Shown: positions 7,068 through 33,003 of the stretch, in pieces | Layout of the letters: the number at the start of each line of letters is the position of its first letter | How positions within the stretch are numbered: position 1 is the stretch's first letter | NCBI GenBank assembly: GCA_964344145.1 | Contig: CAYFME010000001.1 | Coordinates: 16,896 to 80,895, forward strand | Direction of reading: 5' to 3' | DNA length: 64,000 nt | DNA from: an uncultured Gammaproteobacteria bacterium | Lineage (GTDB): Bacteria; Patescibacteriota; Patescibacteriia; UBA9934 | Notes under the pieces: model-generated | What the model saw: the letters and a program-made list of their open reading frames with translations, nothing else | The model's database searches: none | Told to the model about the DNA's origin: nothing | Position numbers and translations under genes: made by a program

Positions 7068-7892
7068 ATGTACGTCCATATGAAACGACCTATCGTGATC
7101 GCAGAGATTGGAGAAAATTTTATCGGGGACCTTGATATCGCCCGTCGATTGATTGAGCAGGCAGCAGCAGCAGGGGCAGATTTTGCCAAATTTCAATCGT
7201 ATCGTCCGGAAACATTTGATAAGAGCGATCCGGAATATGATTGGTTCTGCAAAGTTTCTCTCTCTGATGACGATCATCGCATGCTGGCCGCACACGCGCA
7301 AAAGCACGGGATCGCCTTCATGAGTTCACCCTTTAGCTTAGAGCGCGCCCGTTTTCTCTGTGAGGGGATGGGTTGCAAAGAAATAAAGATCGCCTCTGGG
7401 ATGATGATGAACTTCCCCCTGCTCGATTATGTGAACGAGCATGCCCAGACGGTCTTTCTCTCAACCGGCATGGCAACCATTGAAGAGATTCGCGAAGCGC
7501 TCGCCCATCTTTCAAAGGTTCCGAAGGTGTATATTCTTCATTGTGTCACGCAATATCCATGCGCCGATGCTGACGCAAATCTTTCGGCAATAAACACACT
7601 GCAACGCACGTTTCCTGAGCACGAAATCGGCTATTCTGATCACACAGAGGGTGTTCTGGCACCCGTTATCGCGCATGCCATGGGAGCACGCGTGATTGAA
7701 AAGCACTTTACGTTCGACAAGAATGCAACCGAGGGAACGGATCATATTCTTTCAGCACTACCCGAAGAGCTTGGACAGATGATTACAGATATGCGCCGGG
7801 TAGAGCAGATGTATGGAAGCGGAGAAAAGGCTCCAAGGAAATCAGAGCAAGCCATTATCGATTTCGTGCGCAATCGCTTTTTAGAAGTATGA
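7068..7892 (+). CDS. NeuB-family ulosonic acid synthase, TIM-barrel domain only (no C-terminal SAF domain)
   Basis: IAEIGENFIGDLDIARRLIEQAAAAGADFAKFQSY matches the NeuB/PseI/SpsE N-terminus. At 274 aa it is too short to include the SAF domain. Confidence 0.7.
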   Translation: MYVHMKRPIVIAEIGENFIGDLDIARRLIEQAAAAGADFAKFQSYRPETFDKSDPEYDWFCKVSLSDDDHRMLAAHAQKHGIAFMSSPFSLERARFLCEGMGCKEIKIASGMMMNFPLLDYVNEHAQTVFLSTGMATIEEIREALAHLSKVPKVYILHCVTQYPCADADANLSAINTLQRTFPEHEIGYSDHTEGVLAPVIAHAMGARVIEKHFTFDKNATEGTDHILSALPEELGQMITDMRRVEQMYGSGEKAPRKSEQAIIDFVRNRFLEV

Positions 7893-8575
7893 TTGCCGGC
7901 ATTATTCAAGCTCGCATGGGGTCGACTCGTCTTGCCGGCAAGATGAACATGGAGATGCAGGGCGTTGCTCTTCTGACGTGGGTGCTGCGGCGTGTGAAGC
8001 GTGCAACACGTCTGGACGATGTTGTCTTGGCACTGCCAGATACAGCTGAAAATGATGTGCTGCACGCCATTGGTGATGAGGAAGGGGTGCGCGTTGTGCG
8101 TGGTGACGAGCAGGATGTGCTCGGTCGTTTTTTGAAGGCGGCATCGGTCGTGGGTGCGCAAACCATCGTGCGTATCTGTGCGGATAATCCATTGATCGCT
8201 CCCGAGGAGATTGATCGGCTCGTTCTTTTTTTTCAGAAGCATCCGTGTGACTACGCCTACAATCATATTCCGACAGATGATTACCCGGGACCGGACGGAC
8301 TTGGCGCGGAAATAGTGACCCGCGCCGCCCTCGATGCGAGTGCCGCGAGCACGGATTCCGATGATCATGAACATGTCACGCGCTATGTGAAGAGGCATCC
8401 GGAAACGTTCCGCCTGTTGGCAGCTCCTGCGCCGGCCGCCCTTCAGGGAATTCGTCATATGAAGTTTGATGTGGATACGCAGGCGGATTTCGATGATCTC
8501 ACCGCATTCACCTCTGGACTCACTCCACAAGCGACGCTTGAAGATATTATTGCGCAGGTACACGCAAACGCATGA
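7889..8575 (+). CDS. CTP_transf_3-family cytidylyltransferase (SpsF/PseF-like CMP-sugar synthetase)
   Basis: IIQARMGSTRLAGK glycine-rich NTP-binding motif. It is ATGA-coupled to the upstream NeuB-like gene, a classic SpsE/SpsF-type pairing. Confidence 0.7.
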   Translation: MIAGIIQARMGSTRLAGKMNMEMQGVALLTWVLRRVKRATRLDDVVLALPDTAENDVLHAIGDEEGVRVVRGDEQDVLGRFLKAASVVGAQTIVRICADNPLIAPEEIDRLVLFFQKHPCDYAYNHIPTDDYPGPDGLGAEIVTRAALDASAASTDSDDHEHVTRYVKRHPETFRLLAAPAPAALQGIRHMKFDVDTQADFDDLTAFTSGLTPQATLEDIIAQVHANA

Positions 8576-10287
8576 GCACTATCCGATTTTTTCTTAACCT
8601 CCTCGAGCCATTTCGCCCCCTTGCGATTGTACTTTTCGTTGCCATCCTGTGCTCGGCATTGTTTGAGAGTATTGGGATCGCTATGCTGGTTCCGCTGTTT
8701 GAGACGATTCTAAACGAAGGTGGGGAATCGCAACTGTCCAATGCCCTTGCGCCCGTGCTGCGATTGTTCGGTGCCCAGGAGAATGTTCCCGTTATTGCCG
8801 TGATCGTCCTGGTGATGTTTCTTGCAAAGAACGGGTTTCTTATTGCGACCGAATGGCTAAAGAGCAAGTTCATCTACCAGTTCCGCGCTTATTGGATGGA
8901 GCGCATTCACGCTTACTATATGCGCATGCCATATGGGGAATTGGTGCAGAAAAAACAAGGAACACTTATCGATACGTTGATCACGGAAACAAATAAAGGG
9001 GCGAGCGGTTTAGTGAACTTGGTGCAGTTCGTGACCGGTGTGGTGATGGTGACGGTTTTTTACACATTGCTTTTACTTGCGCATCTGGAGATGACTCTGA
9101 TTATGACCGCTGTCGCGCTCGCGTTGTATTTTGGCGTCGTGCGCACGATGAAGCGGTACTCAAAGGCTGTGGGCAAACAAGAGATCTTTTTTCAGCAGTC
9201 GCTCCATGAAGAGGCGGCAGAGAATATTCGTGCCACACGCCAAATTCGTACATTTGATCTGGAGGCCAGTGTGATCAGACGGTTTAACGAAACATTGCAT
9301 GCGCTGACGAAAATGCTCATCCGCTGGGATGTTGTGCGCGCTATTCCCAAGCCCACCGCCGAAGCCATGATTGTTGTGCTCTTTGTTGGCGTTGTGATGT
9401 GGTTGCAGCAGTATGATCCGGCACTCATGCGCACGCTGGTGCCGACCCTTGGAGTGATTGTTATTGTGGCGCAGCGCCTCTTCAATCATTTAACACAGCT
9501 GATTGTCCATCGCATGGTGGTGATTAGCTTCATGCCAGTTTTCGATTTGTTGCAGCGCGAGTTACGCGGGTTTCATTCCCTTCCCCCAGATACGCAAAAC
9601 GCACAAGCATGCACGCGTCTTTCCGACGACATTGCCTTTGCGGGGATGTGTTTTCAGTATCCGGGCAAGGAGCCACTCTTTGACAACGTGAGCTTCCAGA
9701 TTCCCCACGGGAAAACGACCGCGCTGATTGGAGCATCCGGTTCAGGAAAATCAACTATTGCCGACCTGCTCTTGGGGCTTTATGCGCCAACGAGTGGTGC
9801 GATCCTTGTCAACGGAATTGATCTGGAAACGATTGCCCCCACAACATGGCGACGGATGATCGGATTTGTGAGTCAGGATAATTTTCTCTTTCACACGAGC
9901 ATTGGCGAAAACATTCGCATCGGAACGCCCGAGGCGACGGACGAGGACATCCAGCGCGTGGCACGGCTCGCCAATGCCCATGATTTTATCACCCAGTTTC
10001 CCGAAGGATACGACACGATTGTTGGCGATGAAGGCGTGATGCTCTCGGGAGGACAGCGGCAGCGCATTGCGATCGCGCGTGCGTTGCTTCATAACCCTGA
10101 CATCCTTATTTTTGATGAGGCGACGAGCGCGTTGGACTTGGAGACCGAGCGCGCCATTCAACAAGAGATCGGTGCGTTGGCAAAAGGCAAGACGGTGATC
10201 ATCATTACGCATCGTCAAGAGGTACTTGCACACGTGGACCGCATCATCCGCATTGTTGACGGCGCCGTGCACATAGAAGATGTATGA
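8572..10287 (+). CDS. ABC exporter, fused permease + ATPase (MsbA/lipid-flippase-like)
   Basis: Six predicted TM helices N-terminally. Walker A GASGSGKST, signature LSGGQRQRIAIARAL, Walker B ILIFDEATSALD. Confidence 0.85.
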   Translation: MSTIRFFLNLLEPFRPLAIVLFVAILCSALFESIGIAMLVPLFETILNEGGESQLSNALAPVLRLFGAQENVPVIAVIVLVMFLAKNGFLIATEWLKSKFIYQFRAYWMERIHAYYMRMPYGELVQKKQGTLIDTLITETNKGASGLVNLVQFVTGVVMVTVFYTLLLLAHLEMTLIMTAVALALYFGVVRTMKRYSKAVGKQEIFFQQSLHEEAAENIRATRQIRTFDLEASVIRRFNETLHALTKMLIRWDVVRAIPKPTAEAMIVVLFVGVVMWLQQYDPALMRTLVPTLGVIVIVAQRLFNHLTQLIVHRMVVISFMPVFDLLQRELRGFHSLPPDTQNAQACTRLSDDIAFAGMCFQYPGKEPLFDNVSFQIPHGKTTALIGASGSGKSTIADLLLGLYAPTSGAILVNGIDLETIAPTTWRRMIGFVSQDNFLFHTSIGENIRIGTPEATDEDIQRVARLANAHDFITQFPEGYDTIVGDEGVMLSGGQRQRIAIARALLHNPDILIFDEATSALDLETERAIQQEIGALAKGKTVIIITHRQEVLAHVDRIIRIVDGAVHIEDV

Positions 10288-11768
10288 AGACGCGCGAGTT
10301 CACCGATTATATTGCCGAGGATACACAGGTAACACGACTGATTTATGACACGCTCCTTGCGGCGTATCGAGAATCGAGTCGCGATAGATCCCCTGCGGAA
10401 AATACATTCGGTCTGTTTTTTTGCGAGGTGTTGAAACTCCTCACGGGGACGGTGCTGCGCGCGCGCGAGTTGGATCATGAACTCGTGTCGCAAGAGATGA
10501 AACGTCGCACGCTCACGCGATGGCCGTATATCGGCTACGGAGATTTGCTCCACGGGGTTTCTACGGAGAATAAAACATACGGCCGTACGCAAGGTATGCG
10601 TGCACGACCGCGAGCGGTGCATCGCGGCGTCGAATGGCTCAGTACGCTGAGCGGTCTTTCAAAACGCAAAACCGTTGGGCTCATGAACACAGGGAATAAT
10701 CGGGCCCTTGCGCGCGCCTGCTTGTCGCGCGGATACTCCATACGATTTCTCGATGCGCGTCCGATTGCCCACCGCATGCCCCATCTTGACATCGACCTAG
10801 ACAACATAATGGCGGCGATCGATTCAGTGCATGCGCAAATCACCCTTCCTCTCGCGCCGGACGTATATAAAACGATTCTACGCCGCCATGTGGAAAGCAT
10901 CGTTGAAAGCGGAATGCCGCGTCATCCCGGTGTTGATGTGCTCGTGCGCGGCTCCGGATCGGAATTCATGAATCGGGTGCTTTCTCACGTCGCAGCGCTG
11001 CACAACATCCCCATTATCGATATTGTGCACGGCGAGGGATTCGGCATCTTAGATGAACATACGTTTGGTATTGGGGAACAGTATCTTGCTGACGCGGTCG
11101 TCGGCTACGGAGCGTTGTATGGCCAGCAGTCACAACAGTACTCACTCACACGGTATACGGATGATATGCCACAATACCTATCGACGAAGAGCGATACGCA
11201 GGCAGGTACAGGGCAACACGTCGAATCGCTTGATCTCGCTTCTCAAAAGAACGTGTTCTATTTTCCTACCTCACTTTCCGGAGATCGGTATCGATACGGG
11301 CCGTATCGTGACATGCCGGACGCCTTGTATCTACAATGGCAGCAGCATCTCACCACCCTTTTTGATCCATTGTTTATCAAGGCACATCCAAAAGAGCGAT
11401 TTCATGAGGCGCTGCGCGACACGCATGCACAGTACATCACCGAGGATCTTCGTACGATGATTGACCGTGTGGAGGTGTTCATTTTCGACTATGTTTCCTC
11501 GGCGTTTTTCTTGGCAGCGGCAACAAACAAGCCGATCATTTTTCTTGATCTCGGATTGCGCAACATCGCGCCGCACGCGCGGAAGTTGATGCAAGAGCGG
11601 ACGCACTACATTGATGTCGCGGCGTTTGGACATCTCGATCGCTCCACTCTCCTTCATGCGCTCGCCGATATACAGGAGAAAAAACACGCATTAACACATG
11701 CATGTATCACAGACAGTACAGCGAGTGGACGTTTAGAAACCATTTTTCAATTGGTGGAAGCATTATGA
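10284..11768 (+). CDS. TagF-like (CDP-alcohol/CMP-sugar phosphotransferase, Glyphos_transf-like) polymerase candidate
   Basis: The C-terminal region KAHPKE ... VFIFDYVSSAFFLAAATNKPIIFLDLG resembles the K-HP and TDYSS...KPIIFY motifs of TagF/TarL-type enzymes. The remaining ~350 aa are unassigned. Confidence 0.4.
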   Translation: MKTREFTDYIAEDTQVTRLIYDTLLAAYRESSRDRSPAENTFGLFFCEVLKLLTGTVLRARELDHELVSQEMKRRTLTRWPYIGYGDLLHGVSTENKTYGRTQGMRARPRAVHRGVEWLSTLSGLSKRKTVGLMNTGNNRALARACLSRGYSIRFLDARPIAHRMPHLDIDLDNIMAAIDSVHAQITLPLAPDVYKTILRRHVESIVESGMPRHPGVDVLVRGSGSEFMNRVLSHVAALHNIPIIDIVHGEGFGILDEHTFGIGEQYLADAVVGYGALYGQQSQQYSLTRYTDDMPQYLSTKSDTQAGTGQHVESLDLASQKNVFYFPTSLSGDRYRYGPYRDMPDALYLQWQQHLTTLFDPLFIKAHPKERFHEALRDTHAQYITEDLRTMIDRVEVFIFDYVSSAFFLAAATNKPIIFLDLGLRNIAPHARKLMQERTHYIDVAAFGHLDRSTLLHALADIQEKKHALTHACITDSTASGRLETIFQLVEAL

Positions 11769-12847
11769 CGGTAAACGTACAGGATGATATTCCATTGCTT
11801 GATGCGCTCATGCAGGACATGGAGCGTTATCCTGCGCATCAACCCACGAATTTCTGGAAGCCCTATGTGGCGCGCATTGATCATGCCATCCGTCAGGACG
11901 GTCTGTCCGCTTTTCGCAGCAATCGCGCCATTATCAAAGGCTATGAGTACACGACGCTTCCGGGGGAGAACCCGATGCGGCGTAATCGCTTCGCGCGCTT
12001 TGCGGACACATGCATGCGCGTACCACCACTTTCCTTGCTGCGTAAACCATATCAAGACATGTTCTACAAACTGCAAGAGCAGGTGCGAGAGGGTATCGCG
12101 CGGGAGTATCGATTGCTCTATCAGTACTGCGCAACCGAGCCTCGGATGCGAACGATTTTGAAGGCGGTGCACGAGCAGGGGGTGGGCGATCCGGTCACGA
12201 TTTCGATAGACGAACGGGCGTACTCAGAGAATTTGCTCAATCATATCCCCGCGGTGTCGCTCATGACCACGGTACGTCCGCTTGCACAGACGAAACGTAT
12301 CCTCGAGATTGGCGGCGGGTACGGTGTGTTTGCACAGATCATCACGCGATTGCAGCAGGATGTACTCGACTATCTTGTCATGGTCGATATCCCTCCGGTG
12401 CTGTATGTTGCTACGCAATATCTTAAAGCCCTTTTTCCTGATCGCGTACTTGATTATCGCGCCGTGCGTGATGTGCAGACCATTGATGCGCGCATGTTGC
12501 AAGGAAAGATTTTGCTGATCCCGCCATGGATGCTGGAGCGCCTTGCGTGCGATTTTGACCTTCTGTGGAGTGTGGGGGCATTTCAAGAGATGGAAAAAGA
12601 TCGCGTGGAGATGTACCTCGATCAGGGGGCAAAGCGGTGTGCTTCCATCTTCACGTCAGGCCTTATTCGTGGGCATGCGCCGGGTGCGGGCGGGCAGCGC
12701 GAGCCCATTGCGTTCGATTGGATTGTTGATGCCATTTGCGCGCGTGGGTATACTCATGTACCGCTTCCTTCCGATGTCCCGGAACGCACTGCCCTGCGCG
12801 CGTGCGTAGCGAACTACGATTTTGGCTATTTTGAAAAGGTAACTTAA
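11765..12847 (+). CDS. hypothetical protein, possible SAM-dependent methyltransferase-like fold
   Basis: ATG at 11765 forms an ATGA overlap with the upstream stop. The internal ILEIGGGYGVFAQI resembles a glycine-rich SAM-binding motif. No further recognisable signature. Confidence 0.35.
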   Translation: MTVNVQDDIPLLDALMQDMERYPAHQPTNFWKPYVARIDHAIRQDGLSAFRSNRAIIKGYEYTTLPGENPMRRNRFARFADTCMRVPPLSLLRKPYQDMFYKLQEQVREGIAREYRLLYQYCATEPRMRTILKAVHEQGVGDPVTISIDERAYSENLLNHIPAVSLMTTVRPLAQTKRILEIGGGYGVFAQIITRLQQDVLDYLVMVDIPPVLYVATQYLKALFPDRVLDYRAVRDVQTIDARMLQGKILLIPPWMLERLACDFDLLWSVGAFQEMEKDRVEMYLDQGAKRCASIFTSGLIRGHAPGAGGQREPIAFDWIVDAICARGYTHVPLPSDVPERTALRACVANYDFGYFEKVT

Positions 12848-12861
12848 TTCCGAATTGCATT

Positions 12862-13629
12862 ATGGAAACACCAAAGCAACATGATGTCGTGTGGGACGAG
12901 CAAAAAATTGCAGATTATTGGAATATTTGGGGAAACTTGAAACCAAAGAGTCCTTGGTTTGGCGAAAAAGCCGGTACGTGGATAAGGAAAGAGGTAGAAG
13001 AACTAAGGCCACATTTTAGCGGGAAGTCCCCTAAGGTGTTGGACATTGGTTGCGGTTCCGGCGTTCTTTTGCACAAGACGTTTGCTCCAATGGGATTTGA
13101 TTGTTATGGGGTCGACCTTTCACCGGAGCGCATGGAGCGCGCGCGCCGAGACTATCCGGAGATGACCTTTGCCGTCGGATCGATGAAGTCGTCGCCGTTT
13201 CCGGATGATACCTTCGATCTGGTGGTTTCCACGCAAATGGTAGAGCATTTGCTTGATGATGATCTTGAGCCCTCGTTTGCAGAGATGTCGCGCCTTGTAA
13301 AACCGGGCGGGCTCGTGATGATTACGACGCGATATGATGAAGACATGAGCCAGGGGCATAACGTCTGTCCGGATTGTCACGCCGTCTATCGTTACTCGCA
13401 GCACTTGCAATCGTTTGACATTCCGCGCATGACTGCCCTACTTGAGGGTGTGGGTCTTTCCCCATTGATCGTGAAACGGAGTCGTTGCCGGGATCATTTG
13501 CGCGACATGATCCCACAGCGTCGCATCCCGCTCGTTCGTCATTTAGGCCCCCTGTTGTATTGGCTGTTTGCCGATAAGCTGGATCGCGAGATGGGAAAGT
13601 ATCTTTACGCGGTAGGGAAGAAGGAATAG
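12862..13629 (+). CDS. class I SAM-dependent methyltransferase
   Basis: VLDIGCGSGVLL motif I, LVKPGGLVMITT post-II motif, and a CPDCHAVYRY zinc-ribbon-like insert. Confidence 0.75.
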   Translation: METPKQHDVVWDEQKIADYWNIWGNLKPKSPWFGEKAGTWIRKEVEELRPHFSGKSPKVLDIGCGSGVLLHKTFAPMGFDCYGVDLSPERMERARRDYPEMTFAVGSMKSSPFPDDTFDLVVSTQMVEHLLDDDLEPSFAEMSRLVKPGGLVMITTRYDEDMSQGHNVCPDCHAVYRYSQHLQSFDIPRMTALLEGVGLSPLIVKRSRCRDHLRDMIPQRRIPLVRHLGPLLYWLFADKLDREMGKYLYAVGKKE

Positions 13630-14463: not shown

Positions 14464-15030
14464 ATGATTATGCTATCATTTAGCAAAAGGGATATGAGTA
14501 ACGTTTGTAACGATAAATTTAAGAATCTTGTCCTCTACGTCCTATCTCACGAAGATTATAGGGAGGGAGGTATTAAGAAGTTGAATAAACTCCTGTACTT
14601 TATTGATTTCTATTTTTACAGAGACCACGAGGAGCTCATCTCGAACGTAGACTACGCAAAGGCAGACATGGGGCCTGTGGTTGACGGGTATAAGACTATT
14701 TTCAGTGCATTAGCCGAAGATGGCGTGATTGAGCAGGTGTCGAACGTGGGCTTTGTGGCGTATAAGGCGAACCAAGCACCAGATTTGAGTGATTTTTCTT
14801 CAGATGAGATCGCCCACATCGGACGAGTACTCGATCAGTATGGGAAACTTTCTGGAAGTGACTTGGAGTTAATCTCTCATCAGCAGCAACCGTGGGTGCT
14901 TACTGAAAGCATGGGAGATAAGATTGATCCTGATTTAGCACTCTTAATTGCAGATAGTGATAATGAAGATGTGGAAGTTCAAAATCAGGATTTGAAGAAC
15001 GAACTGATTGATCTTGCAAATTCTGTGTAG
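14464..15030 (+). CDS. Panacea-domain (DUF4065, SocA-like) putative antitoxin
   Basis: KKLNKLLYFIDFYFYRDHEELISNVDYAKADMGPVVDGY matches the DUF4065/Panacea core (KLxKLLYF...GPV..). The gene is AT-rich relative to its flanks. Confidence 0.6.
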   Translation: MIMLSFSKRDMSNVCNDKFKNLVLYVLSHEDYREGGIKKLNKLLYFIDFYFYRDHEELISNVDYAKADMGPVVDGYKTIFSALAEDGVIEQVSNVGFVAYKANQAPDLSDFSSDEIAHIGRVLDQYGKLSGSDLELISHQQQPWVLTESMGDKIDPDLALLIADSDNEDVEVQNQDLKNELIDLANSV

Positions 15031-15033: not shown

Positions 15034-15363
15034 ATGGCTAAAATTACGGTTGAAGTCCTGGAGTCGCTACAAAAGGAGGTAGATAAAGGTGGTCCGAAAA
15101 TCAAGAAATTATTCGAAAAACAAAAACGATTCATGGAAATGAATCCCAACTATCCATCACTGGGACGAACCAAGCTGCAGGGCGTCTTTGACAAATATGG
15201 TGATCCACTTTGGGAAATTCGTTTGAACAAAAAGGACAGAATCGTATTTGTGGAAAGAAACAGCGGCGAAAGAGTCATCTGGTTGAAGATTGTTGACCAC
15301 GATTCACTCGTCAGAAAGAACACGATTCATGCAAAAGGAAACTATAAAGACACCCCTTGCTGA
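15034..15363 (+). CDS. small protein with RelE/ParE-like toxin C-terminus (putative cognate toxin)
   Basis: LWEIRLNKKDRIVFVERNSGERVIWLKIVDH resembles the RelE/ParE superfamily motif LYELR..RiiY...v.vL.i.hR. It starts 4 nt after the Panacea gene stop. Confidence 0.45.
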   Translation: MAKITVEVLESLQKEVDKGGPKIKKLFEKQKRFMEMNPNYPSLGRTKLQGVFDKYGDPLWEIRLNKKDRIVFVERNSGERVIWLKIVDHDSLVRKNTIHAKGNYKDTPC

Positions 15364-16427: not shown

Positions 16428-16549
16428 GGGAATCTCCGTATTATGAATGCTGGGAGAGTATAGCAACAGGACGGAGACCATGGCAATACTCCTGTTTCAG
16501 AACAATTGACAGGCTTTCTTTGTATGCTACCATCGAATCCACAATACCT

Positions 16550-24965: not shown

Positions 24966-27079
24966 GGGGCGCAACAGGACAACGGGCAGATGCCCCGCAT
25001 GAGATTCGGGAGAACCTTCGTACGTTTTCGAACATTCTTTCTTCGTGCGGAGTTCCGTTTTGGTTGGAGGCAGGGACGGCGCTTGCGGCGCATCGCGATG
25101 GGAAGATTTTTCCCTGGGAGCACGATGTGGATGTGGCGACATGGATTGATCACAAGGAGGGCGTGTTGAGTGCTGTTTCAAAGATGCGCGCACGGGGCTG
25201 GACGGTGAAGATCCAAAAGGGCTTTCCGTACCTCGATAACATTATCCAGGTCACCTTGCCGACGCTTCCAGACGGTCGTGAGCCATTCCCGAATCAATAC
25301 GACATCTATCTGTATCGCCGTGTGGAGGATAAGGCGATGATGCGGTGGATCCATCAGCCAACTGGGCGTTTCGCTTCGCTACAAAAGAAGATGATCTGGT
25401 ACGCAAAGGCATTGGCGCTGCCACGTGGGCGCAAGGCGAGGAGCGTCAAGTGGATTCCGCAATCCCTTCGTCGCGGTGTCTTTGCCCTTGTCTTGCACCT
25501 TCTTGTCCGCTTTGGACAATGCAAATACCACGTGCATCCATTGCGTTTTTTTCAAGAGCTGCGAACGATGGATTTTTACGGTGTTACGGTGCAGATTCCC
25601 AAGGATACCGATGCGTTTCTTGCGCACCGTTATGGACCGGGATGGAAAAGCCCTGATCCGCAATTTAACCAAAGCGGGAAGTGGAAGAAATCAAACGCGC
25701 GCCCCGAGTTACCGTTGCGCCTACTAGGGATGCCACGTATTGAGTATGGATTACAAGAGCGAAGGAATGAGCGTGTGGAGCTTGCACAACAGTTGATGCA
25801 GGCGGGCGTGCGTGCCGGACATCCCGCAGCGTTTATGCGCGATCTTGTCTCTCGCGACGGGAGCACACTCACGATCAATGGGCAGCAGTATCCTATTGAA
25901 AATGGTGTGAAGATGCTTGCGTTTGGCAAGGCGGCCGGCTCAATGGCGGAGGCATTTGTTGAGATGGTTGGAGCGGAGCGTATCAGTGCGGGGTTAGTGT
26001 CCGCTCCGCGTCTTGATACCTCATCGCTGCGCCAATATGCGCAGATTGAATGTATTGAAGGAACCCATCCGTTTGTGAGTGAGCAGAGTCTCTTGGCAGG
26101 ACAGCACGCGCTCGCTTTTGCAGATGCGTGCACGGAATCGGACGTGGTCGTCTGCCTTGTGTCCGGTGGCGGTTCCGCATTGCTCGCCCATCCGGCGGAG
26201 GGGATCACGCTTCAACAGAAAATTGACTTTGTACGCACGTGTATGCAGCGTGGTATTGCGGAGCGAGAATTGAATGTCGTGCGAAAGGGACTCTCAGCGA
26301 TCAAGGGAGGAAAGTTGGCGAGAAAAATGGCTCCTGCGACCATCGTAAACATCATTCTTTCTGACGAGCGGTCGCATCAGATAGAGGCAAATGCATCTGG
26401 CCCAACGGTGCCAAACAATACGACGCTGACTGCCCAAGCCGTGCTGCAAGAAGCGGGGATGTGGGAAGAAACGCCGCGGCATCTGCGTGACGTGCTGGTG
26501 CGCAATCCATCACTCACGGATGATGATCTTGCAGACATCCATCTGGCGACGAGGTTAGTGCCCGGGCGAGATCATGCCCTTGCTGGTATGCGAAAAGCGG
26601 CAGCGCGTTTATGTGATTCCGTTACGGTGCACGAGGATTTTTTTCACGAAAAGACGCACGGAAGTGTTGAGGAAGTCGCGCAACGGTTGGGTACGTTCTT
26701 TCGTAAACAATTTGCGCACGCCGGGGCTGGCCGACACGCAGTACTTGCCCATGGAGAAGTTATGGTTCCGGCAAAAAAAGAAAGTCGTGGTGGCCGATGT
26801 CAGCACCTCGCAGCGCTTATGCTTAATGAATTGCGCTCTATTCCTGCGTTCACGTTTGCGGCGCTGTCCTCAGACGGGTGTGACTTTTTGCACGGAGTGC
26901 ACGGAGCGGTGATCACCGATGCAACCATCGCACGCGTTGACCGTGATCGTATTGACTGCGCAGATGCTGTTGACCAGACAGCAACCCATGCGTTGCATGA
27001 GCGGCTTGGCACGTTAGCAACTGGAGACTACACTGGGACGAATGTAAACGACTACTATATTTTCATCTTCGATACGTAA
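24962..27079 (+). CDS. fusion: LicD-family (phosphocholine/phospho-polyol transferase fold, N) + glycerate 2-kinase MOFRL family (C)
   Basis: N-terminus FWLEAGTALAAHRDGKIFPWEHDVDVA is the LicD/fukutin WLxxGTLLGxxRxxxxIPWDDDxD motif. The C-terminal half carries KMLAFGKAAGSMAEAF (GKAA..MA) and VVCLVSGGGSALLAHPAEGITLQQKIDFVRTCMQRGIAERELNVVRKGLSAIKGGKLA (SGGGSAL...RK.LS.IKGG.LA). Also AALSSDGCDFLHGVHGAVIT, the MOFRL DGxDG motif. Start ATG at 24962 forms an ATGA overlap. Confidence 0.7.
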   Translation: MRGATGQRADAPHEIRENLRTFSNILSSCGVPFWLEAGTALAAHRDGKIFPWEHDVDVATWIDHKEGVLSAVSKMRARGWTVKIQKGFPYLDNIIQVTLPTLPDGREPFPNQYDIYLYRRVEDKAMMRWIHQPTGRFASLQKKMIWYAKALALPRGRKARSVKWIPQSLRRGVFALVLHLLVRFGQCKYHVHPLRFFQELRTMDFYGVTVQIPKDTDAFLAHRYGPGWKSPDPQFNQSGKWKKSNARPELPLRLLGMPRIEYGLQERRNERVELAQQLMQAGVRAGHPAAFMRDLVSRDGSTLTINGQQYPIENGVKMLAFGKAAGSMAEAFVEMVGAERISAGLVSAPRLDTSSLRQYAQIECIEGTHPFVSEQSLLAGQHALAFADACTESDVVVCLVSGGGSALLAHPAEGITLQQKIDFVRTCMQRGIAERELNVVRKGLSAIKGGKLARKMAPATIVNIILSDERSHQIEANASGPTVPNNTTLTAQAVLQEAGMWEETPRHLRDVLVRNPSLTDDDLADIHLATRLVPGRDHALAGMRKAAARLCDSVTVHEDFFHEKTHGSVEEVAQRLGTFFRKQFAHAGAGRHAVLAHGEVMVPAKKESRGGRCQHLAALMLNELRSIPAFTFAALSSDGCDFLHGVHGAVITDATIARVDRDRIDCADAVDQTATHALHERLGTLATGDYTGTNVNDYYIFIFDT

Positions 27080-28067: not shown

Positions 28068-28075
28068 GTCTCCAT

Positions 28076-28894
28076 ATGAAAGGGAGAAACATCATCATTA
28101 CTGGCGGGACGCGCGGGTTGGGGCTTGCCTACGCTCGGCACCTGGCCGAGCAGGGATCCAACCTCGCCCTTGTTGATGTGTCGGCGGATGCGTGCCGGGT
28201 GTATGGGGAGGTGGAGGACGTAGAGGGACTTTGTTCAGAGCTTGCTGGTGATGACTCCATGGTTCGTTTTTATGCATGCGATTTGACGGATCGAGCGGCA
28301 ACGAAGGCAACGATCGATCAAATTGTTCAAGATTTTGCATCCATTGACGGTGTGGTCACCAACGCCGGAGGAGATGTTCGCGGGACACAGCATGATGCCT
28401 CGGGCGGCAAGGCTCCAGAGAATACGTTTTTCATCGCCGATGATGATCACGACACGATTTTTGCGCGCAATTACGACACGTGTCGTAATGCGCTCCGCGC
28501 GGTTGTTCCACACATGCAGCGGCAGGGGTATGGAAAGATCGTAACGGTTGCTTCCGTGAACGCCGGGTTTGGGATGGAGCGAGAGACGACGTACGCAACC
28601 GCGAAAGCGGCGGTGATCCACCTGATGCGTTGTCTTGCCGTACAGCTGCGCCAAGATGGGATCAACGTGAACTGCGTGGCACCGGGACCAACAAAAACGG
28701 GAAGATTTTTGTCGACACTGAAAGATCGTGCGGGACATGATCTTGAAGGAGTGCATTCGACTGCACGACTTGATCGGGTTGCACGCCCGGAAGACATCGC
28801 TCCGGTGGTCGCCTTTTTGTTGTCAGATGCGGCCGATTTTGTCTCTGGAGAAGTGGTTCGGGTTGATGGAGGGCTTTTCACGGCGCCCATATGA
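28076..28894 (+). CDS. SDR-family oxidoreductase
   Basis: IIITGGTRGLGLA Rossmann motif, NAGG, YATAKAA (YxxxK). Confidence 0.8.
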   Translation: MKGRNIIITGGTRGLGLAYARHLAEQGSNLALVDVSADACRVYGEVEDVEGLCSELAGDDSMVRFYACDLTDRAATKATIDQIVQDFASIDGVVTNAGGDVRGTQHDASGGKAPENTFFIADDDHDTIFARNYDTCRNALRAVVPHMQRQGYGKIVTVASVNAGFGMERETTYATAKAAVIHLMRCLAVQLRQDGINVNCVAPGPTKTGRFLSTLKDRAGHDLEGVHSTARLDRVARPEDIAPVVAFLLSDAADFVSGEVVRVDGGLFTAPI

Positions 28895-29787
28895 CCGATG
28901 ACGAGCGAAACATTGATACGCAACTCGCAAACATGATGTTCGCTGTGCAAAAGCAACTTGAGACGCGCTCGATCGGTATGGATTGGAAGCAAGCGTTCGT
29001 GCTGACGGCGCAAAACGTCCTAGAAACAGTTGGAGCGTCGTCGGACGTTTCGCGTGAGAAGGTGCAAGAGGCAGCAGAGGTGTTTCTAAGCGACTTTTGT
29101 GCCATCCCGATGCGTGATACGGTGTATCACGACGTGCCAGATGCGTTGCAGGCTCTGGCAACGGTAGCGGGCCATGTTGTGCTTTGGACTCGTGGCGATG
29201 TGGTGAACACACATCAAGCGCAGAAAGTGGAACAGTCAGGCATTGGCGAGATGTTGCGTTTGCTACAAGAGAAGCATGAGGTGAATGTGACCGAGCTGAT
29301 CGCTGCGCGCAAGATGGCGCGAACCGTCGAACATGTTGATGCAAGATGGCGGCAGGCGGGAGAGCCTGAGCAGCTCGTGATCTCCGTATACGAAGATTCG
29401 GTTGAAAATAGCGTTGCCGTTGATTCCCTACTGCGCACATGGGCTTCGCGCAAAGGAGTGGCCCTTGCATTGTTGCATCTTCGGGCAACATTAGGCCGAC
29501 GCGCCCACGAGCCAACGCCGCAAGATTTGCCTATATCGGTGGTGAGCGTAACGTCGCTCACGGACGCCGTTGATGTCATGCGCGGTGTCCTTGAGCAGGA
29601 GCAATTGACCCGTAACGAACATATTGCGCTGCTGGATTTTGACGGGGCGCTCTGCGATAATCGGCTTATGCGTTGCAGGCAAGCTGGTGTCATGGAGAAA
29701 CATCTTCGCATGCTATTGTCTCCAGACGATCAACACCATTTTGATAAACACTATTGGTATGAACAAGGATCCAAAACAGGCATTTGA
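28891..29787 (+). CDS. hypothetical protein (possible HAD-like motif near C-terminus)
   Basis: ATGA coupling. Only LLDFDGALCDN (DxDG-like) stands out. No confident family assignment. Confidence 0.35.
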   Translation: MTDDERNIDTQLANMMFAVQKQLETRSIGMDWKQAFVLTAQNVLETVGASSDVSREKVQEAAEVFLSDFCAIPMRDTVYHDVPDALQALATVAGHVVLWTRGDVVNTHQAQKVEQSGIGEMLRLLQEKHEVNVTELIAARKMARTVEHVDARWRQAGEPEQLVISVYEDSVENSVAVDSLLRTWASRKGVALALLHLRATLGRRAHEPTPQDLPISVVSVTSLTDAVDVMRGVLEQEQLTRNEHIALLDFDGALCDNRLMRCRQAGVMEKHLRMLLSPDDQHHFDKHYWYEQGSKTGI

Positions 29788-30538
29788 TTTTACAGGCGCC
29801 ACTGCGCTCATTGCGGGTGGTGCGACCGGACTCGGGCTCGAGATGGCGCGCGGACTGCTCGCGCATGGATGTCGCGTTGCTCTGATGGGGCGTCGTAAAG
29901 AGTTGTGCGAACAAGTAGCAGCGGAGCTATGTGCAACGTATGATGATCGTTGCGTGGCGATTCCGGGTGATATTTCCGATGAGGCTTCCATGCGCTCTGT
30001 AGCACAGCAGGTAGCGGCACAATTTGACGGCGAGCTCAATATTGCCATCAATTCTGCGGGATTTAACATCCGCAATCCTATTGAGAAGGTCTCGCTTGAT
30101 GAGTGGGAGTCGGTGCAGCGTACGAATGCGACAGGCGGCTTTCTCTTTGCACGCGAGCTTTTCCCTCTTTTGAAGAAGGCGTCCTTCGGGCGGCTGATCA
30201 ATGTGGTGAGCATTTTTGGTTCACACTCGTTTCCAGATCGCGTGAGTTACTCCTCGAGCAAAGGATCGCTTTTGCAACTCACGCGCACACTCGCGATTGA
30301 GTGGGCGTCCTATGGGATTACGGTTAATGCGATTTCGCCTGGACCGTTTTTGACAGACATCAATAAGGCTGTGCTCGATAACAAAGAGAACTACGAGAAG
30401 TTTTGCCAAAAGATTCCGATTGGTCGATTTGGTGACCCGCAAGAGGTGACGACGAGTGCGTTGTTTCTCGCATCGCCGGCATCAACCTATGTCACGGGAG
30501 CAGACATTATGGTCGATGGAGCGTGGACAATAACCTAG
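29759..30538 (+). CDS. SDR-family oxidoreductase
   Basis: Start at the internal ATG giving MNKDPKQAFDFTGATALIAGGATGLGL (Rossmann). NSAG, YSSSKGS (YxxxK). The long listed N-terminal extension overlaps the upstream gene and is unlikely. Confidence 0.75.
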   Translation: MNKDPKQAFDFTGATALIAGGATGLGLEMARGLLAHGCRVALMGRRKELCEQVAAELCATYDDRCVAIPGDISDEASMRSVAQQVAAQFDGELNIAINSAGFNIRNPIEKVSLDEWESVQRTNATGGFLFARELFPLLKKASFGRLINVVSIFGSHSFPDRVSYSSSKGSLLQLTRTLAIEWASYGITVNAISPGPFLTDINKAVLDNKENYEKFCQKIPIGRFGDPQEVTTSALFLASPASTYVTGADIMVDGAWTIT

Positions 30539-30563
30539 CTCTCGTGTACAACATCCAACAGAT

Positions 30564-31295
30564 ATGAACGCCATTATCTACGCTGCCGGCGCGGGCAATC
30601 GTCTGGGTGCTGCGATACATAAAGGGCTCGTGACGGTTGCGGGCGTACCTATGATTGACTATGCACTGCTGCGCGCTGCGCGAGGAAATCCTCAACAGAT
30701 TATTGTGGTCACCGGTCACTTTGCAGACGCGTTGCGTGAGCACATCGGAGCGGACTATCGCGGGATCCCGGTGCGCTACGTGCATAACGATCATTATCAG
30801 CTGCGCGGTAACATGAGCAGTCTGTGGGCGGCGCGTGATTACTGTACTGACGACGTCTTCTTCACAACGAGTGACCTCGTTTGTTCCTTGCAAGACATCG
30901 ATGCGTTTTTTGCTGCTCCACCCGTGAATAAAATCCTCATTGACACGAATCCGCAGTATCATACAGATCCCGATCCGGTAAAAGTGACGGTTGAGCAAGA
31001 GCGCATTGTGTCGGTGCGCAAGCAGATCGATGGGAGTGTCCATGGAGCCGCCATTGGCATGTATCACTTTAGCAAGAAGGCGATGCAACAGATGCTTGAC
31101 GCCATCGAGGCGCGGATCGCCGCAGGAGGCATTGATACGTCCCTTTATTGGGCTATTGATGACATTATGGGCGATGTGCATACCGTGCCCGTGTATTGTA
31201 AAGGGTTACCGTGGTTTGATGTGGATACGCCGGAAGAACTCCGCGCAGCGGAGCAAGCGGTAAGTAATGCCCAAGCTGATTATCTTGATGTATGA
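30564..31295 (+). CDS. sugar/alcohol-phosphate nucleotidyltransferase (NTP_transferase fold, LicC/IspD/CofC-like)
   Basis: MNAIIYAAGAGNRLG...GLVTVAGVPMIDY is the G-x-G-x-R-L nucleotidyltransferase signature. 243 aa. Confidence 0.7.
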   Translation: MNAIIYAAGAGNRLGAAIHKGLVTVAGVPMIDYALLRAARGNPQQIIVVTGHFADALREHIGADYRGIPVRYVHNDHYQLRGNMSSLWAARDYCTDDVFFTTSDLVCSLQDIDAFFAAPPVNKILIDTNPQYHTDPDPVKVTVEQERIVSVRKQIDGSVHGAAIGMYHFSKKAMQQMLDAIEARIAAGGIDTSLYWAIDDIMGDVHTVPVYCKGLPWFDVDTPEELRAAEQAVSNAQADYLDV

Positions 31296-32233
31296 AAATA
31301 CTTGTTGTTGGGGGTTCCGGGTTTATCGGAAGCCATGTCGCAGATCAACTTTCTGACGCAGGACACGACGTTGCGATTTTCGCACCGGATCGTTCACCTT
31401 ATGTACGAGACGACCAACGGATGATTGTTGGTGATATTACCAATGCCGACGATGTCGATCGCGCGGTCGCAGGACATGATATTGTTTATAATTTTGCAAG
31501 TGTGGCCGCCATCAAAGAGGCAAGCGAAAATCCAATCGCGGTCACGCGCGTGAATGTCCTTGGGACCGTGCATCTGCTGGAGGCCTGCAGAACGCACAAC
31601 GTGAGGAGATTTATTCTGGCAAGTTCGGTCTATGTGTATAGTCACACGGGGTCGATTTATAAAGCGAGTAAGCAGGCGGCCGAACGGTTTGTGGAGGCGT
31701 ATCTGGAGCGGTTTGATGCGCCGGCGCACACGATTGCGCGCGTGGGCACCGTGTATGGTCCCCGTGCCCAAGAGTGGAACGGCTTTCGTCAGCTCATCAC
31801 CGAGGCGGTGACAAAACAATCGGTCGTGTACAACGGATCGGGCGATGAGGTGCGTGCCTTTGTGCACGTGCACGATGTTGCCGCAAGTTTTGTCGATCTG
31901 CTCGCCCCTGAATATGAAAATGCGCACGTGATTATTGCCGGACAAGAGCAGGTCCGCGCGCGCGATTTTGTTGATATGCTTGCGGAGATGTTCGGCGGCG
32001 CCCTTGATGTAACCTTTGCGCATGAGGGAAGCGCGCGCCCAGATCATTACACCATGACGCCGTTTAGTTACCGTCCGAAAATGGCAAAGAAGATGACGCG
32101 CAGCACCTACATTGATCTTGGGCAGGGGATCCTTGAATACGTACATGAGCTGCAGTTAGAAAAGAACGGCGTTGATCACACCGGGATTCCAACGTTGCAG
32201 ATCGAGCATAACGGCGTTGATCACACCGTATGA
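31292..32233 (+). CDS. NAD-dependent nucleotide-sugar epimerase/dehydratase
   Basis: MKILVVGGSGFIGSHV Rossmann motif, YKASK (YxxxK). The C-terminal tail is created by an 18-bp tandem-type repeat. Confidence 0.75.
   Translation: MKILVVGGSGFIGSHVADQLSDAGHDVAIFAPDRSPYVRDDQRMIVGDITNADDVDRAVAGHDIVYNFASVAAIKEASENPIAVTRVNVLGTVHLLEACRTHNVRRFILASSVYVYSHTGSIYKASKQAAERFVEAYLERFDAPAHTIARVGTVYGPRAQEWNGFRQLITEAVTKQSVVYNGSGDEVRAFVHVHDVAASFVDLLAPEYENAHVIIAGQEQVRARDFVDMLAEMFGGALDVTFAHEGSARPDHYTMTPFSYRPKMAKKMTRSTYIDLGQGILEYVHELQLEKNGVDHTGIPTLQIEHNGVDHTV
32165..32227 (+). repeat. perfect 18-bp direct repeat AACGGCGTTGATCACACC x2, 45 bp apart, at the 3' end of the epimerase gene
   Basis: Copies at 32165-32182 and 32210-32227. 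Encodes the duplicated NGVDHT in the tail ...NGVDHTGIPTLQIEHNGVDHTV*. Confidence 0.8.
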
Positions 32234-33003
32234 ATATCATCGCCATTATTCCAGCGCGAATGGCCTCGACACGCCTGCCGGGAAAGCCCATGAAGCCTAT
32301 TTGTGGGATGCCCATGGTCGGGCATGTGTATGCGCGCGCGAAGATGAGTGAAAAGTTGACAGGAGTGTATATTGCCACCTGCGACCAGGAGATTATGGAT
32401 TACGCTGGCAGCATTGGCGCTCCCGCTTATATGACCAGTGATACGCATGAGCGCTGTACCGACCGCGTTGCCGAGGCGATGGCCTATGTGGAGCGTGATA
32501 CGGGAGAAGAGGCAGATATTGTCTTGGTCTTGCAGGGGGATGAGCCGATGACAACGCCCGAGATGATTGATGCAGCCTTGGCACCTATGATGGACGATCC
32601 ATCCATTGATGTTGTGAATTTGATGGCACCGCTTGCCAGTGCCAAAGAGCATGATGATAAGAATGAGCCGAAGGTGGTGGTAGATAAGCAAGGAAATGCG
32701 ATGTATATGTCGCGCGAGGCGATTCCGTCGCGCTGGAAGCAAGGAGAGGATGTGCCGATGATGAAGCAGGTGTGCGTGATGCCGTTTCGCCGGCAAGCGT
32801 TGCTTGACTTTAATGCTATGGAGCAAACGCCTTGCGAGATTGCCGAGTCCATCGACATGTTGCGCCTCCTTGAAAACGGCAAGCCTGTGCGGATGGTCCT
32901 ATCTCCAACCGCTGCAACGTATAGCGTGGACACGCCGGAGGACTTGGCGCATGTTGAGCAAGCGATGCGGGATGATCCGCTGGTTGTCCAGTACGCAGCA
33001 TGA
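32230..33003 (+). CDS. KdsB-like CMP-ulosonic acid synthetase (CTP_transf_3 family)
   Basis: IIAIIPARMASTRLPGKPMKPICGMPMV...YIATCDQEI...MTSDTHERCTDRVAEA parallels KdsB (IIPARYASTRLPGKPL...HQSGTDR). ATGA coupling to the upstream gene. Confidence 0.7.
   Translation: MNIIAIIPARMASTRLPGKPMKPICGMPMVGHVYARAKMSEKLTGVYIATCDQEIMDYAGSIGAPAYMTSDTHERCTDRVAEAMAYVERDTGEEADIVLVLQGDEPMTTPEMIDAALAPMMDDPSIDVVNLMAPLASAKEHDDKNEPKVVVDKQGNAMYMSREAIPSRWKQGEDVPMMKQVCVMPFRRQALLDFNAMEQTPCEIAESIDMLRLLENGKPVRMVLSPTAATYSVDTPEDLAHVEQAMRDDPLVVQYAA

Follow-up and report, generated by a model that had tools for sequence, protein, structure and literature searches.

The flagellin glycosylation locus of Campylobacter jejuni carries multiple nonulosonic acid (NulO) synthase and cytidine monophosphate (CMP)-synthetase genes. 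A NulO cluster of Leptospira interrogans likewise combines several aminotransferases, NeuB-type synthases and CMP-NulO synthetases in one locus, is thereby taken to yield more than one nonulosonic acid, and includes a NeuB fused to a phosphatase (PMC3438082). Here, we analyzed a 64,000-nucleotide stretch of contig CAYFME010000001.1 (assembly GCA_964344145.1, uncultured Gammaproteobacteria bacterium; hereafter the window), which is the core of a ~55 kb surface-glycan biosynthesis locus with three precursor modules. It resembles both clusters as a multi-synthase, multi-CMP-synthetase locus and shares with Leptospira the presence of a synthase fusion. Unlike them, it carries a NeuB fused to a flavin adenine dinucleotide (FAD) oxidoreductase and another NeuB without an SAF domain, integrates a KdsB-subfamily cytidylyltransferase and a glycerate-kinase/LicD branch, and has no NeuC, LegG, PseG or Maf protein in the window.

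Transferases for such sugars have been described in Tannerella forsythia, where Tanf_01245, TFUB4_00887 and BFO_1060, TagB-like proteins of the glycosyltransferase-B (GT-B) fold with an HP motif encoded beside NulO genes, transfer pseudaminic and legionaminic acid (Pse/Leg) derivatives, as validated by knock-out and glycan mass spectrometry (PMC5420450). Tannerella Pse5Am7Gra carries an N-glyceroyl group of unknown genetic basis (PMC5378307). The window shares with this system GT-B, TagB-like proteins, the HP motif, NulO gene neighbors and the prospect of a CMP-activated, heavily tailored NulO. Its three GT-B proteins, encoded at 10284, 23307 and 38214 and assigned below to families A1, A2 and A3, respectively, are nonetheless different: only 23307 matches the BFO_1060 model, very weakly, while the families of 10284 and 38214 are different ones. 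The predicted glycerate route also differs, running through a kinase and LicD to a phosphodiester instead of N-acylation.

TagF/TarL (PF04464; PDB 3L7I and 8VA1), Cps3D and Bcs3 have a GT-B-like fold in common with the window proteins, and the C-terminal nucleotide-binding domain of A3 is homologous. However, there is no family-level match to TagF/TarL, the N-terminal acceptor/catalytic half is unrelated by sequence, and the window lacks an ABC-2 exporter and the supply genes TarI/TarJ or TagD. Compared with KpsC/KpsS and WaaA, the transferases for CMP-activated 3-deoxy-D-manno-octulosonic acid (Kdo), the window proteins are extended at the N terminus by 125 to about 400 aa. The lic1 phosphocholine pathway comprises the LicA kinase, the LicC cytidylyltransferase and the LicD transferase, and the pneumococcal cytidine diphosphate (CDP)-2-glycerol pathway is a further case; the window branch has the same progression from a kinase through a nucleotidyltransferase to a LicD-type phosphotransferase decorating a glycan, whereas its kinase is of the MOFRL/DUF4147 glycerate 2-kinase family and fused to LicD. 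Loci with several NeuB/CMP-synthetase genes and LicD decorations are already known, and our analysis does not conflict with current understanding. What is unusual here is the FAD-NeuB fusion, the SAF-less NeuB, the LicD-glycerate-kinase fusion in a conserved nine-gene string, three sparsely populated or uncharacterized GT-B families, and the lack of a canonical NeuC/PseG.

Three proposed precursor modules in a probable surface-glycan locus

Domain content, folds, fusions and synteny were observed directly, by a Pfam scan of all sizeable plus-strand open reading frames (ORFs) and one minus-strand gene, an NCBIfam scan of key ORFs, and the structural and genomic comparisons described below. We consider, with moderate confidence, that the locus makes an undecaprenyl-linked heteroglycan containing several CMP-activated ulosonic acids, each with a cognate GT-B transferase, and that a LicD branch probably decorates it with a C3 acid through a phosphodiester; which sugars are made, which donor each GT-B protein uses and which final acceptor receives the product are what we infer. 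The locus is an unusual variant of a known locus type and probably not a teichoic-acid machine. Its plus-strand gene run is nearly unbroken from the window start to ~56.6 kb, with an even G+C content of about 0.50-0.55, and the glycan cluster extends from before base 562 to about 56,600. An Rfam search returned zero matches in the window, and promoter and terminator scans gave background level only. The precursor genes, except those of the LicD branch, are as follows.

562-1512, plus strand: TviC/GalE-like epimerase (Pfam)
about 1505-2848, plus strand: TviB-like UDP-N-acetylglucosamine (UDP-GlcNAc) 6-dehydrogenase (Pfam, NCBIfam)
2912-4861, plus strand: fused DegT aminotransferase (PseC/LegC-like) and NAD-dependent 4,6-dehydratase (LegB-like) (Pfam, NCBIfam)
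4858-5538, plus strand: PIG-L family de-N-acetylase (Pfam)
5543-6361, plus strand: N-formyltransferase (Pfam, NCBIfam)
6336-7064, plus strand: short soluble protein of glycosyltransferase family 2 (GT2) (Pfam)
7068-7892, plus strand: NeuB-family synthase 1, 274 aa, without SAF (Pfam, 239.8 bits)
7889-8575, plus strand: cytidylyltransferase 1, CTP_transf_3 (Pfam, 78.5 bits)
11765-12847, plus strand: NanM-type sugar O-methyltransferase (TIGR04371, 148 bits, cut-off 44)
12862-13629, plus strand: class I S-adenosylmethionine (SAM) methyltransferase (Pfam)
15369-16481, minus strand: Methyltransf_23 methyltransferase (Pfam)
16550-18949, plus strand: fusion of an FAD amine-oxidase/GLF-like oxidoreductase, NeuB and SAF, synthase 2 (Pfam, NeuB 300.9 bits)
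18942, plus strand: short-chain dehydrogenase/reductase (SDR) (Pfam)
19700, plus strand: NAD-binding 2-Hacid_dh_C-like protein (Pfam)
20849-21532, plus strand: PseF-like cytidylyltransferase 2 (Pfam, 79.8 bits)
21529, plus strand: aldo-keto reductase (Pfam)
22426, plus strand: FkbM methyltransferase, module block ending 23310 (Pfam)
32230-33003, plus strand: cytidylyltransferase 3, KdsB subfamily (Pfam, 149.9 bits)

Membership among the CMP-ulosonic acid synthetases was assessed by the Pfam gathering score together with substrate-specific models. All three cytidylyltransferases exceed the PF02348 gathering score and only 32230 passes a curated NCBIfam subfamily cut-off (KdsB subfamily model NF009905, 296.7 versus 255), although not those of the kdsB equivalogs. 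For 20849 the nearest NCBIfam model is PseF, below its cut-off (144.9 versus 205.7 bits), and no specific NCBIfam model fits 7889. Both synthases score above the PF03102 gathering threshold, and in NCBIfam the NeuB_NnaB model outscores the PseI model for both domains, under the equivalog cut-offs; the products of modules 1 and 2 are therefore probably of the NeuB/LegI type rather than the PseI type. The SAF domain is found only in the second synthase. Since the cytidylyltransferases are pairwise only 24-29% identical and the NeuB domains 35%, they represent separate lineages and not recent duplicates.

A preliminary description of this DNA had proposed three different CMP-sugar synthetases and two NeuB homologs, hence several CMP-activated acidic sugars, and the scans bear this out: the three synthetases are mutually divergent PF02348 proteins, both NeuB genes are real, and the locus could make more than one such acid. 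Its PIG-L deacetylase and N-formyltransferase also proved genuine, albeit upstream of the proposed start, and four methyltransferases do lie in the proposed range (11765, 12862, 22426 and, on the minus strand, 15369), with two more downstream. The range itself, 7068-33003, was far too small.

The gene pair at 562-2848 would provide a hexosaminuronic acid precursor; the dehydrogenase reaches 434.6 bits with the TviB model, under its cut-off, and passes an NDP-sugar dehydrogenase subfamily model. Module 1 is predicted to make a diamino, probably N-formylated, nonulosonic acid using the dehydratase/aminotransferase fusion, which would perform the opening steps, PIG-L, the formyltransferase (NF005414, 193.8 bits, under the model cut-off), the SAF-less NeuB and the cytidylyltransferase. 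The aminotransferase-dehydratase fusion also occurs in metagenomic contig L010 (L-numbers denote the related loci and contigs compared with the window), and in a metagenome-assembled genome (MAG) the two parts are separate genes. Homologs of the first synthase (64-66% identity) are likewise short (269-271 aa). The GT2 gene at 6336 accompanies module 1 and keeps its position in L004, L010, L016 and L052.

Between the methyltransferase genes that follow lie a gene for a SocA/Panacea-domain antitoxin (14464-15030) and a small unassigned ORF (15034-15363). Because the syntenic MAG and L010 loci have neither, this segment looks like a toxin-antitoxin insertion in the cluster.

Module 2 would yield a second nonulosonic acid, tailored differently from the module 1 product, by means of the FAD-oxidoreductase-NeuB fusion, reductases, the PseF-like cytidylyltransferase and the FkbM methyltransferase. 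The fusion (800-850 aa) is present in the MAG contig JAUSIX010000019.1 and kept in L004 and L010 (67-75% identity), and the divergent orientation of the 15369 methyltransferase and FAD-NeuB genes is the same in the MAG and L010. In marine locus L046 (4576-8342), a NeuB instead occurs as a CBS-NeuB-SAF-TIM barrel fusion, and the next gene encodes a GMC (FAD) oxidoreductase. The recurrent pairing of NeuB with a flavoenzyme suggests an oxidized nonulosonic acid. The KdsB-like enzyme 32230 of module 3 would activate a third acid. Its substrate need not be Kdo, as elsewhere the KdsB-like type usually follows a NeuB or HpcH aldolase gene.

GT-B proteins and their relation to TagF

One GT-B-like protein is placed after each precursor module.

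10284-11768, plus strand: A1 protein, 494 aa, rare GT-B family with FPTSLSG, KAHPKE and FDYVSS motifs (profile, AlphaFold model)
23307-24965, plus strand: A2 protein, 552 aa, one predicted transmembrane (TM) helix (NCBIfam, profile)
38214-40340, plus strand: A3 protein, 708 aa, GT-B fold, TIGR04326-related, with an invariant His-Pro and a TYSS motif (profile)

The preliminary description had called all three TagF-like on the strength of K-HP and DYSS motifs. These motifs are present in 10284 (IKAHPKE, FDYVSS) and 38214 (IKSHPK, SSYSS) and conserved across each family, whereas 23307 has neither an HP nor a DYSS motif, KGKKGEL and SMAHQSTT standing there instead. PF04464 matched none of the candidates (10284, 23307, 38061/38214), even at E<=10, and NCBIfam gave no TagF-type match to them. 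The likeness therefore holds for the GT-B superfamily and fails for the TagF family. Profile searches, proposed beforehand as the way to overturn the TagF-like and LicD-like calls, thus divided them, with the LicD call standing.

Single-sequence searches of the PDB found nothing for the three candidates, and the matches of 10284 and 23307 that did surface in single-sequence and profile searches (torsin, PelD and MtrA) were discarded as chance level. Members of the 10284 family are very scarce, with ten sequences returned when 5.8 billion proteins were searched by word index. Its AlphaFold model (predicted local distance difference test 83, predicted template modeling score 0.86) has a GT-B fold, and Foldseek ranked NeuC first and TarL fourth among its structural matches. 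The GT-B-like fold with two Rossmann domains by which TagF/TarL proteins are recognized is present, 10284 and 38214 both being GT-B fold proteins. The 38214 protein scored 89 bits, under the cut-off, with TIGR04326 ("surface carbohydrate biosynthesis", function unknown), and an exhaustive search recovered 838 A3 representatives at E<=1e-3, where the word-index search gave almost none. Against PDB sequences, an A3 profile of 60 members matched TarL best (E 2.6e-8), followed by UDP-GlcNAc 2-epimerases (1.5e-6), KpsC (3e-4) and Bcs3 (0.013).

We compared the three families by hhalign with a TagF set of three annotated, plasmid-borne genes, S. epidermidis tarL and one each from Streptomyces and Leuconostoc. 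A3 aligned with a probability of 96.6%, confined to TarL residues 342-560, the donor-binding half, and of 88.8% with E. coli WecB; A1 and A2 reached probabilities of 20.6% and 0.4% with the TagF set. The N-terminal half of A3 gave no hhalign alignment to the TagF proteins. The catalytic H300 of TarL, mutated in 8VA1 and equivalent to H444 of TagF, lies within Q.WHA.G.FK, 133 residues upstream of HP; A3 (QHGP) and A1 (HGE) have a His-Gly 110-120 residues upstream of HP, in regions that hhalign left unaligned. The three proteins are not paralogous to one another by BLASTP, and at the profile level only A1-A3 (91% over 62 columns) and A2-A3 (56%) are linked. None of the candidates matched PF05159 (KpsC/KpsS) or Glycos_transf_N (WaaA). 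By these comparisons, A1-A3 appear to be distant members of the wider TagF/2-epimerase/KpsC GT-B superfamily that lie outside the TagF family.

That they might still be true TagF-type phosphotransferases, building a teichoic-acid- or group-2-capsule-like polymer with backbone phosphodiesters from CDP-activated alcohols or acids supplied by the kinase/nucleotidyltransferase branch, is in our estimation unlikely. The A3 homology to the C-terminal domain of TarL/TagF speaks for it, as do the shared motif series PR.D, AP(T/G), K.HP, (D/T)YSS and F..DG..S.R, the similarly spaced His-Gly of A1 and A3, and the position of A1 directly beside the branch glycerate kinase in 17 loci. However, PF04464 remains unmatched, and the homology covers the nucleotide-binding half only, which 2-epimerases and KpsC share at similar significance; the N-terminal halves do not align with TagF, and A1 and A2 score poorly against TagF. 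In addition, the window lacks both a TagGH/KpsMT-type ABC-2 exporter and an IspD/TarI-type cytidylyltransferase, a phosphotransferase is already supplied by LicD, and the validated TagB-like proteins of nonulosonic-acid loci are glycosyltransferases. Given the Tannerella precedent (PMC5420450), 10284, 23307 and 38214 would most likely act as cognate transferases for cytidine-nucleotide-activated donors, in this case ulosonic acids, and not as TagF-type polymerases. As a practical caution, HP/DYSS-type motifs encoded beside NeuB genes should not be taken for teichoic-acid polymerases.

The prominence of NeuC among the structural matches of 10284 raises another alternative, namely that A1, and possibly 38214, is the missing NeuC/LegG/PseG-type hydrolase (and epimerase) that frees a hexosamine for NeuB or aldolase condensation. 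Neither Pfam nor tblastn with WecB revealed an Epimerase_2/PseG-type protein in the window, the A3 profile does match 2-epimerases, and A1 lies between the cytidylyltransferase and NeuB genes in L016 and L052 and directly after the (aldolase and) cytidylyltransferase genes in marine loci. By eye, the A1 pattern D..V..GSG...IP.I.I.HGE.FG...GE also recalls D.V.VHGD...IPV.HVEAG...PEE of WecB, but hhalign of A1 with WecB gave a probability of 0.26%, and the idea that 10284 keeps the WecB/NeuC catalytic motif was dropped. Moreover, the C-terminal FPT, K.HP and DYSS of A1 are TagF-like and unlike the T.HR.E, H.NP and DSGG.QEE of the epimerases, L016 carries A1 in addition to a canonical WecB homolog, and such a role would leave three CMP-activated donors without a recognizable transferase. 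We regard the hydrolase alternative as improbable, the least probable of those considered here.

The predicted glycerate kinase and LicD branch

Module 3 couples the KdsB-subfamily cytidylyltransferase to a predicted kinase-nucleotidyltransferase-LicD branch encoded by the following genes, together with a dehydrogenase gene downstream.

24962-27079, plus strand: LicD phosphotransferase fused to glycerate 2-kinase (DUF4147 and MOFRL) (Pfam)
27081, plus strand: xylose-isomerase-like TIM barrel (Pfam)
28076, plus strand: SDR (Pfam)
28891-29787, plus strand: 298-aa protein without a family match, between the two module 3 SDR genes
about 29759-30538, plus strand: SDR (Pfam)
30564-31295, plus strand: MobA-like/NTP_transferase (NTP_transf_3) nucleotidyltransferase (Pfam)
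31292, plus strand: NAD-dependent epimerase/dehydratase, block ending 32233 (Pfam)
37274, plus strand: D-2-hydroxyacid dehydrogenase, block ending 38221 (Pfam, NCBIfam)

At the N terminus of the 24962-27079 ORF lies the LicD domain (PF04991, 40.7 bits, cut-off 22.6), and DUF4147 (189.9 bits) and MOFRL (61 bits) are both far over their Pfam cut-offs. In the LicC/LicD-like pair of the preliminary description, LicD is confirmed, and the LicC-like partner is the MobA-like/NTP_transferase protein 30564. A LicD profile match, a linked nucleotidyltransferase and a kinase are therefore all present, with the kinase fused to LicD. In the MAG, LicD and the kinase are adjacent but separate genes 57 bp apart, and in L050 a LicD homolog lies 25 bp after the nucleotidyltransferase gene.

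The branch would attach a phosphodiester-linked C3 hydroxy-acid, probably derived from 2-phosphoglycerate; a glycerate-type substituent is suggested by a kinase of the glycerate 2-kinase family and its physical fusion to LicD. A phospho-hydroxy-acid is predicted instead of choline or glycerol because the glycerate 2-kinase is accompanied by a 2-hydroxyacid dehydrogenase, a TIM-barrel isomerase-like protein and two SDRs. In NCBIfam the dehydrogenase resembles phosphoglycerate dehydrogenase or hydroxypyruvate reductase, a resemblance that fits glycerate supply. We had considered the TIM barrel 27081 as a hydroxypyruvate isomerase and dropped this assignment, as NCBIfam returned only faint L-ribulose-5-phosphate 3-epimerase matches. 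Alternatively, by analogy with Tannerella Pse5Am7Gra, the glycerate chemistry may feed N-glyceroyl groups, but a kinase and LicD would not be expected if glycerate ended as an amide. A literature search for genes behind glyceramide or glycerate 2-phosphate substituents yielded nothing usable. The earlier proposal of a phospho-linked heteropolymer can thus be retained as a plausible phosphodiester substituent (LicD and nucleotidyltransferase) and not as TagF-type teichoic assembly, for which accessory genes are absent.

The 298-aa ORF at 28891 has a homolog of 35% identity in the MAG, and in the marine loci its position is empty or taken by an unrelated gene. The ~1.6-kb gap between module 3 and the following GT2-alcohol dehydrogenase gene holds, within 33948-34566, a gene for an NYN-domain protein (predicted RNase), followed by a 12-bp G+C-rich hairpin at 34539-34566; the gene probably either stands alone or marks another insertion.

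Conservation of the gene string in other genomes

From the DegT aminotransferase to the MobA-like nucleotidyltransferase, the genes of the MAG contig JAUSIX010000019.1 (unclassified bacterium) stand in the order seen in the window, with 42-68% amino acid identity. The order in L010 likewise agrees, and this contig repeats modules 1 and 2 with up to 75% identity. Scans with an A1 alignment retrieved 7 loci from species-representative genomes and 45 from metagenomes, originating from Legionellales, Dehalococcoidia, marine gammaproteobacterial single-cell genomes, Hyphomicrobiales and many marine metagenomes. Window proteins were mapped onto these loci by tblastn, and counts were taken from the 33 whose flanks spanned 4 kb or more. 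In 24 of the 33, the A1 gene adjoins a CTP_transf_3 gene, of the KdsB-like type in 19 (53-56% identical to 32230) and of the 7889 type in 5, and in 17 it adjoins the glycerate kinase gene. The commonest order is NeuB, (HpcH/HpaI aldolase), KdsB-like cytidylyltransferase, A1, glycerate kinase, 2-hydroxyacid dehydrogenase, TIM barrel, SDR, SDR, NTP_transf_3, often followed by a Methyltransf_23 gene and a PseF-like cytidylyltransferase/aldo-keto reductase pair. Like the window, L012/L066 (Legionellales) and L014 combine all three cytidylyltransferase types. The block of cyclase, 2-hydroxyacid dehydrogenase, A3 and family 4 glycosyltransferase (GT4) is also kept in L019, and an FkbM methyltransferase gene precedes the A2 gene in every locus seen (window, MAG and L011).

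Many uncultured marine Gammaproteobacteria carry the string, and it has a scattered occurrence in other phyla. In the form (aldolase or NeuB), KdsB-like cytidylyltransferase, A1, glycerate 2-kinase, 2-hydroxyacid dehydrogenase, TIM barrel, two SDRs and nucleotidyltransferase, LicD being optional, the string may specify an undescribed pathway in which D-glycerate is phosphorylated, nucleotide-activated and transferred as a phosphodiester-linked acid onto a ulosonic-acid glycan, with A1 as a new TagF-superfamily class for the same chemistry. We put this proposal forward only tentatively and consider it more doubtful than not.

The HpcH/HpaI class II pyruvate aldolase genes (Pfam) lie directly upstream of the KdsB-like gene in L007 (8450-9208), L024 (8438-9184) and L046 (8431-9198), and the window has none. 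The aldolase hints at a route to a 3-deoxy-2-ulosonic acid in the marine loci that does not use a phosphoenolpyruvate-dependent synthase.

Predicted chain initiation, export and fate of the glycan

The remaining genes of the cluster include those expected to initiate, extend and move the glycan.

8572-10287, plus strand: half-size ATP-binding cassette (ABC) exporter, MsbA/Sav1866/PglK type (Pfam, PDB sequence match)
34625, plus strand: GT2 fused to a Zn-dependent alcohol dehydrogenase (Pfam)
36556, plus strand: cyclase/arylformamidase-like protein (Pfam)
40222 and 41424, plus strand: two GT4 glycosyltransferases (Pfam)
42554, plus strand: membrane protein, at least 9 TM helices, weak Wzy_C match (Pfam)
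43701, plus strand: GT2, block ending 44900 (Pfam)
46774 and 47595, plus strand: split transketolase (Pfam)
48530, plus strand: methyltransferase (Pfam)
49307, plus strand: PglC-like Bac_transf phosphoglycosyltransferase, 197 aa (Pfam)
49885, plus strand: TylF methyltransferase (Pfam)
50588, plus strand: DegT aminotransferase, PglE-like (Pfam)
51780, plus strand: PglF/CapD-like dehydratase, block ending 53777 (Pfam)

Synthesis would start on undecaprenyl phosphate, where the PglC-like 49307 is predicted to place a bacillosamine-like sugar made by the PglE- and PglF-like enzymes, and the chain would grow through the GT2 and GT4 enzymes. The ABC protein, which may flip the lipid-linked glycan, gave full-length alignments in the PDB to MsbA (3e-65) and PglK (about 5e-62), as well as to Sav1866. 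These alignments point to the flippase type that moves lipids or lipid-linked oligosaccharides and not to an ABC-2 exporter of teichoic acids or group-2 capsules. The Wzy_C-family protein 42554 would then polymerize or ligate the glycan. Among the Pfam assignments of all plus-strand window genes we found no TagGH/KpsMT-type ABC-2 exporter and no CDP-glycerol/ribitol supply genes (TagD, TarI/TarJ), and the window gave no KpsC/S-type Pfam match and no IspD/TarI-type cytidylyltransferase match. The suggestion that the locus goes beyond a simple Wzy-type O-antigen is accordingly sustained for its chemistry; for the assembly route, with its MsbA/PglK-type ABC protein, PglC-like transferase, PglE/PglF-like enzymes and Wzy_C-family protein, it is not.

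Rather than forming a polymer, the oligosaccharide might be moved en bloc to S-layer, pilin or outer-membrane proteins, as modeled on the Tannerella, Neisseria and Campylobacter systems, with the Wzy_C protein serving as O-oligosaccharyltransferase in the manner of PglL and the ABC protein as flippase in the manner of PglK. PglL-type enzymes are members of the Wzy_C family, which favors this possibility, as do the PglC-, PglE- and PglF-like genes, the PglK-similar ABC protein, the lack of a recognized Wzx in the window and the origin of the nearest functional precedent of 23307 in a protein O-glycosylation system. On the other hand, the chain-length-regulator topology of ORF 53787 and the presence of Wzz in homologous loci (L007) suggest a polymer, the Wzy_C match is weak, and the window yielded neither a target protein nor an S-layer gene. 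Transfer to protein is a possible but not the expected outcome; it bears solely on what becomes of the glycan and agrees with the proposed biosynthesis.

Other genes of this part have less specific assignments. ORF 53787 encodes 337 aa with a TM helix at each end, the Wzz-like topology referred to above, and the 569-aa product of ORF 54892 (to 56601), with at least 10 TM helices, might serve as a flippase, polymerase or GT-C enzyme. The glycosyltransferase block also encodes a soluble protein of 435 aa (44866-46173) with only faint WD40/beta-propeller signals, and relaxed Pfam searches of 44866, 53787 and 54892 gave no matches. The split transketolase (46774-48533) consists of N- and C-terminal halves encoded as two genes inside the cluster, and a transketolase or DXP-synthase-like gene adjoins the A2-family gene in L011 and L035; it could mean a two-carbon branch or a chain extension of a sugar. 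Past the cluster end lie genes for an fn3/purple-acid-phosphatase-N-like protein (56981), a tRNA-guanine transglycosylase (58537) and a ClpB-like AAA+ protein (60796), in a region reaching 63480; between the latter two, ORF 59682 weakly matches an IS200-like Y1 transposase.

Assessment and implications

Several observations weigh against the undecaprenyl-linked heteroglycan with cognate GT-B transferases and a glycerate-type LicD branch. The likeness of 23307 to BFO_1060_trans (NF046086) amounts to 20.2 bits versus a cut-off of 200 (E 2.6e-4, residues 380-538) and appears to be a lead rather than membership. A canonical NeuC, LegG or PseG was not found in the window (Pfam; tblastn with WecB), which means that one of the GT-B proteins might be a sugar-nucleotide hydrolase and not a transferase. 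The kinase scores 135-140 bits (best 139.7) with the glycerate 2-kinase NCBIfam equivalogs, whose cut-offs are 550-670, placing its assignment at the family level only, and 2-phosphoglycerate is a central metabolite for which a dedicated kinase is not obviously required. No Wzx-type flippase was recognized in the window, and the Wzy_C score of 42554, 23, is below the Pfam gathering score of 31.7.

Little is known about the transferases that act on nonulosonic acids apart from sialic acid, and for most non-carbohydrate decorations of these sugars the genetics is open. The locus and its relatives offer three uncharacterized GT-B families, one of them with only a few dozen known members, each linked by gene order to a different cytidylyltransferase. 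The fusions of FAD oxidoreductase with NeuB and of LicD with glycerate 2-kinase, which are of a type that joins partner functions, point to specific, testable chemistry. If true, the phospho-glycerate branch would represent a new class of anionic decoration on bacterial surface glycans and would explain a gene string that is common in marine metagenomes.

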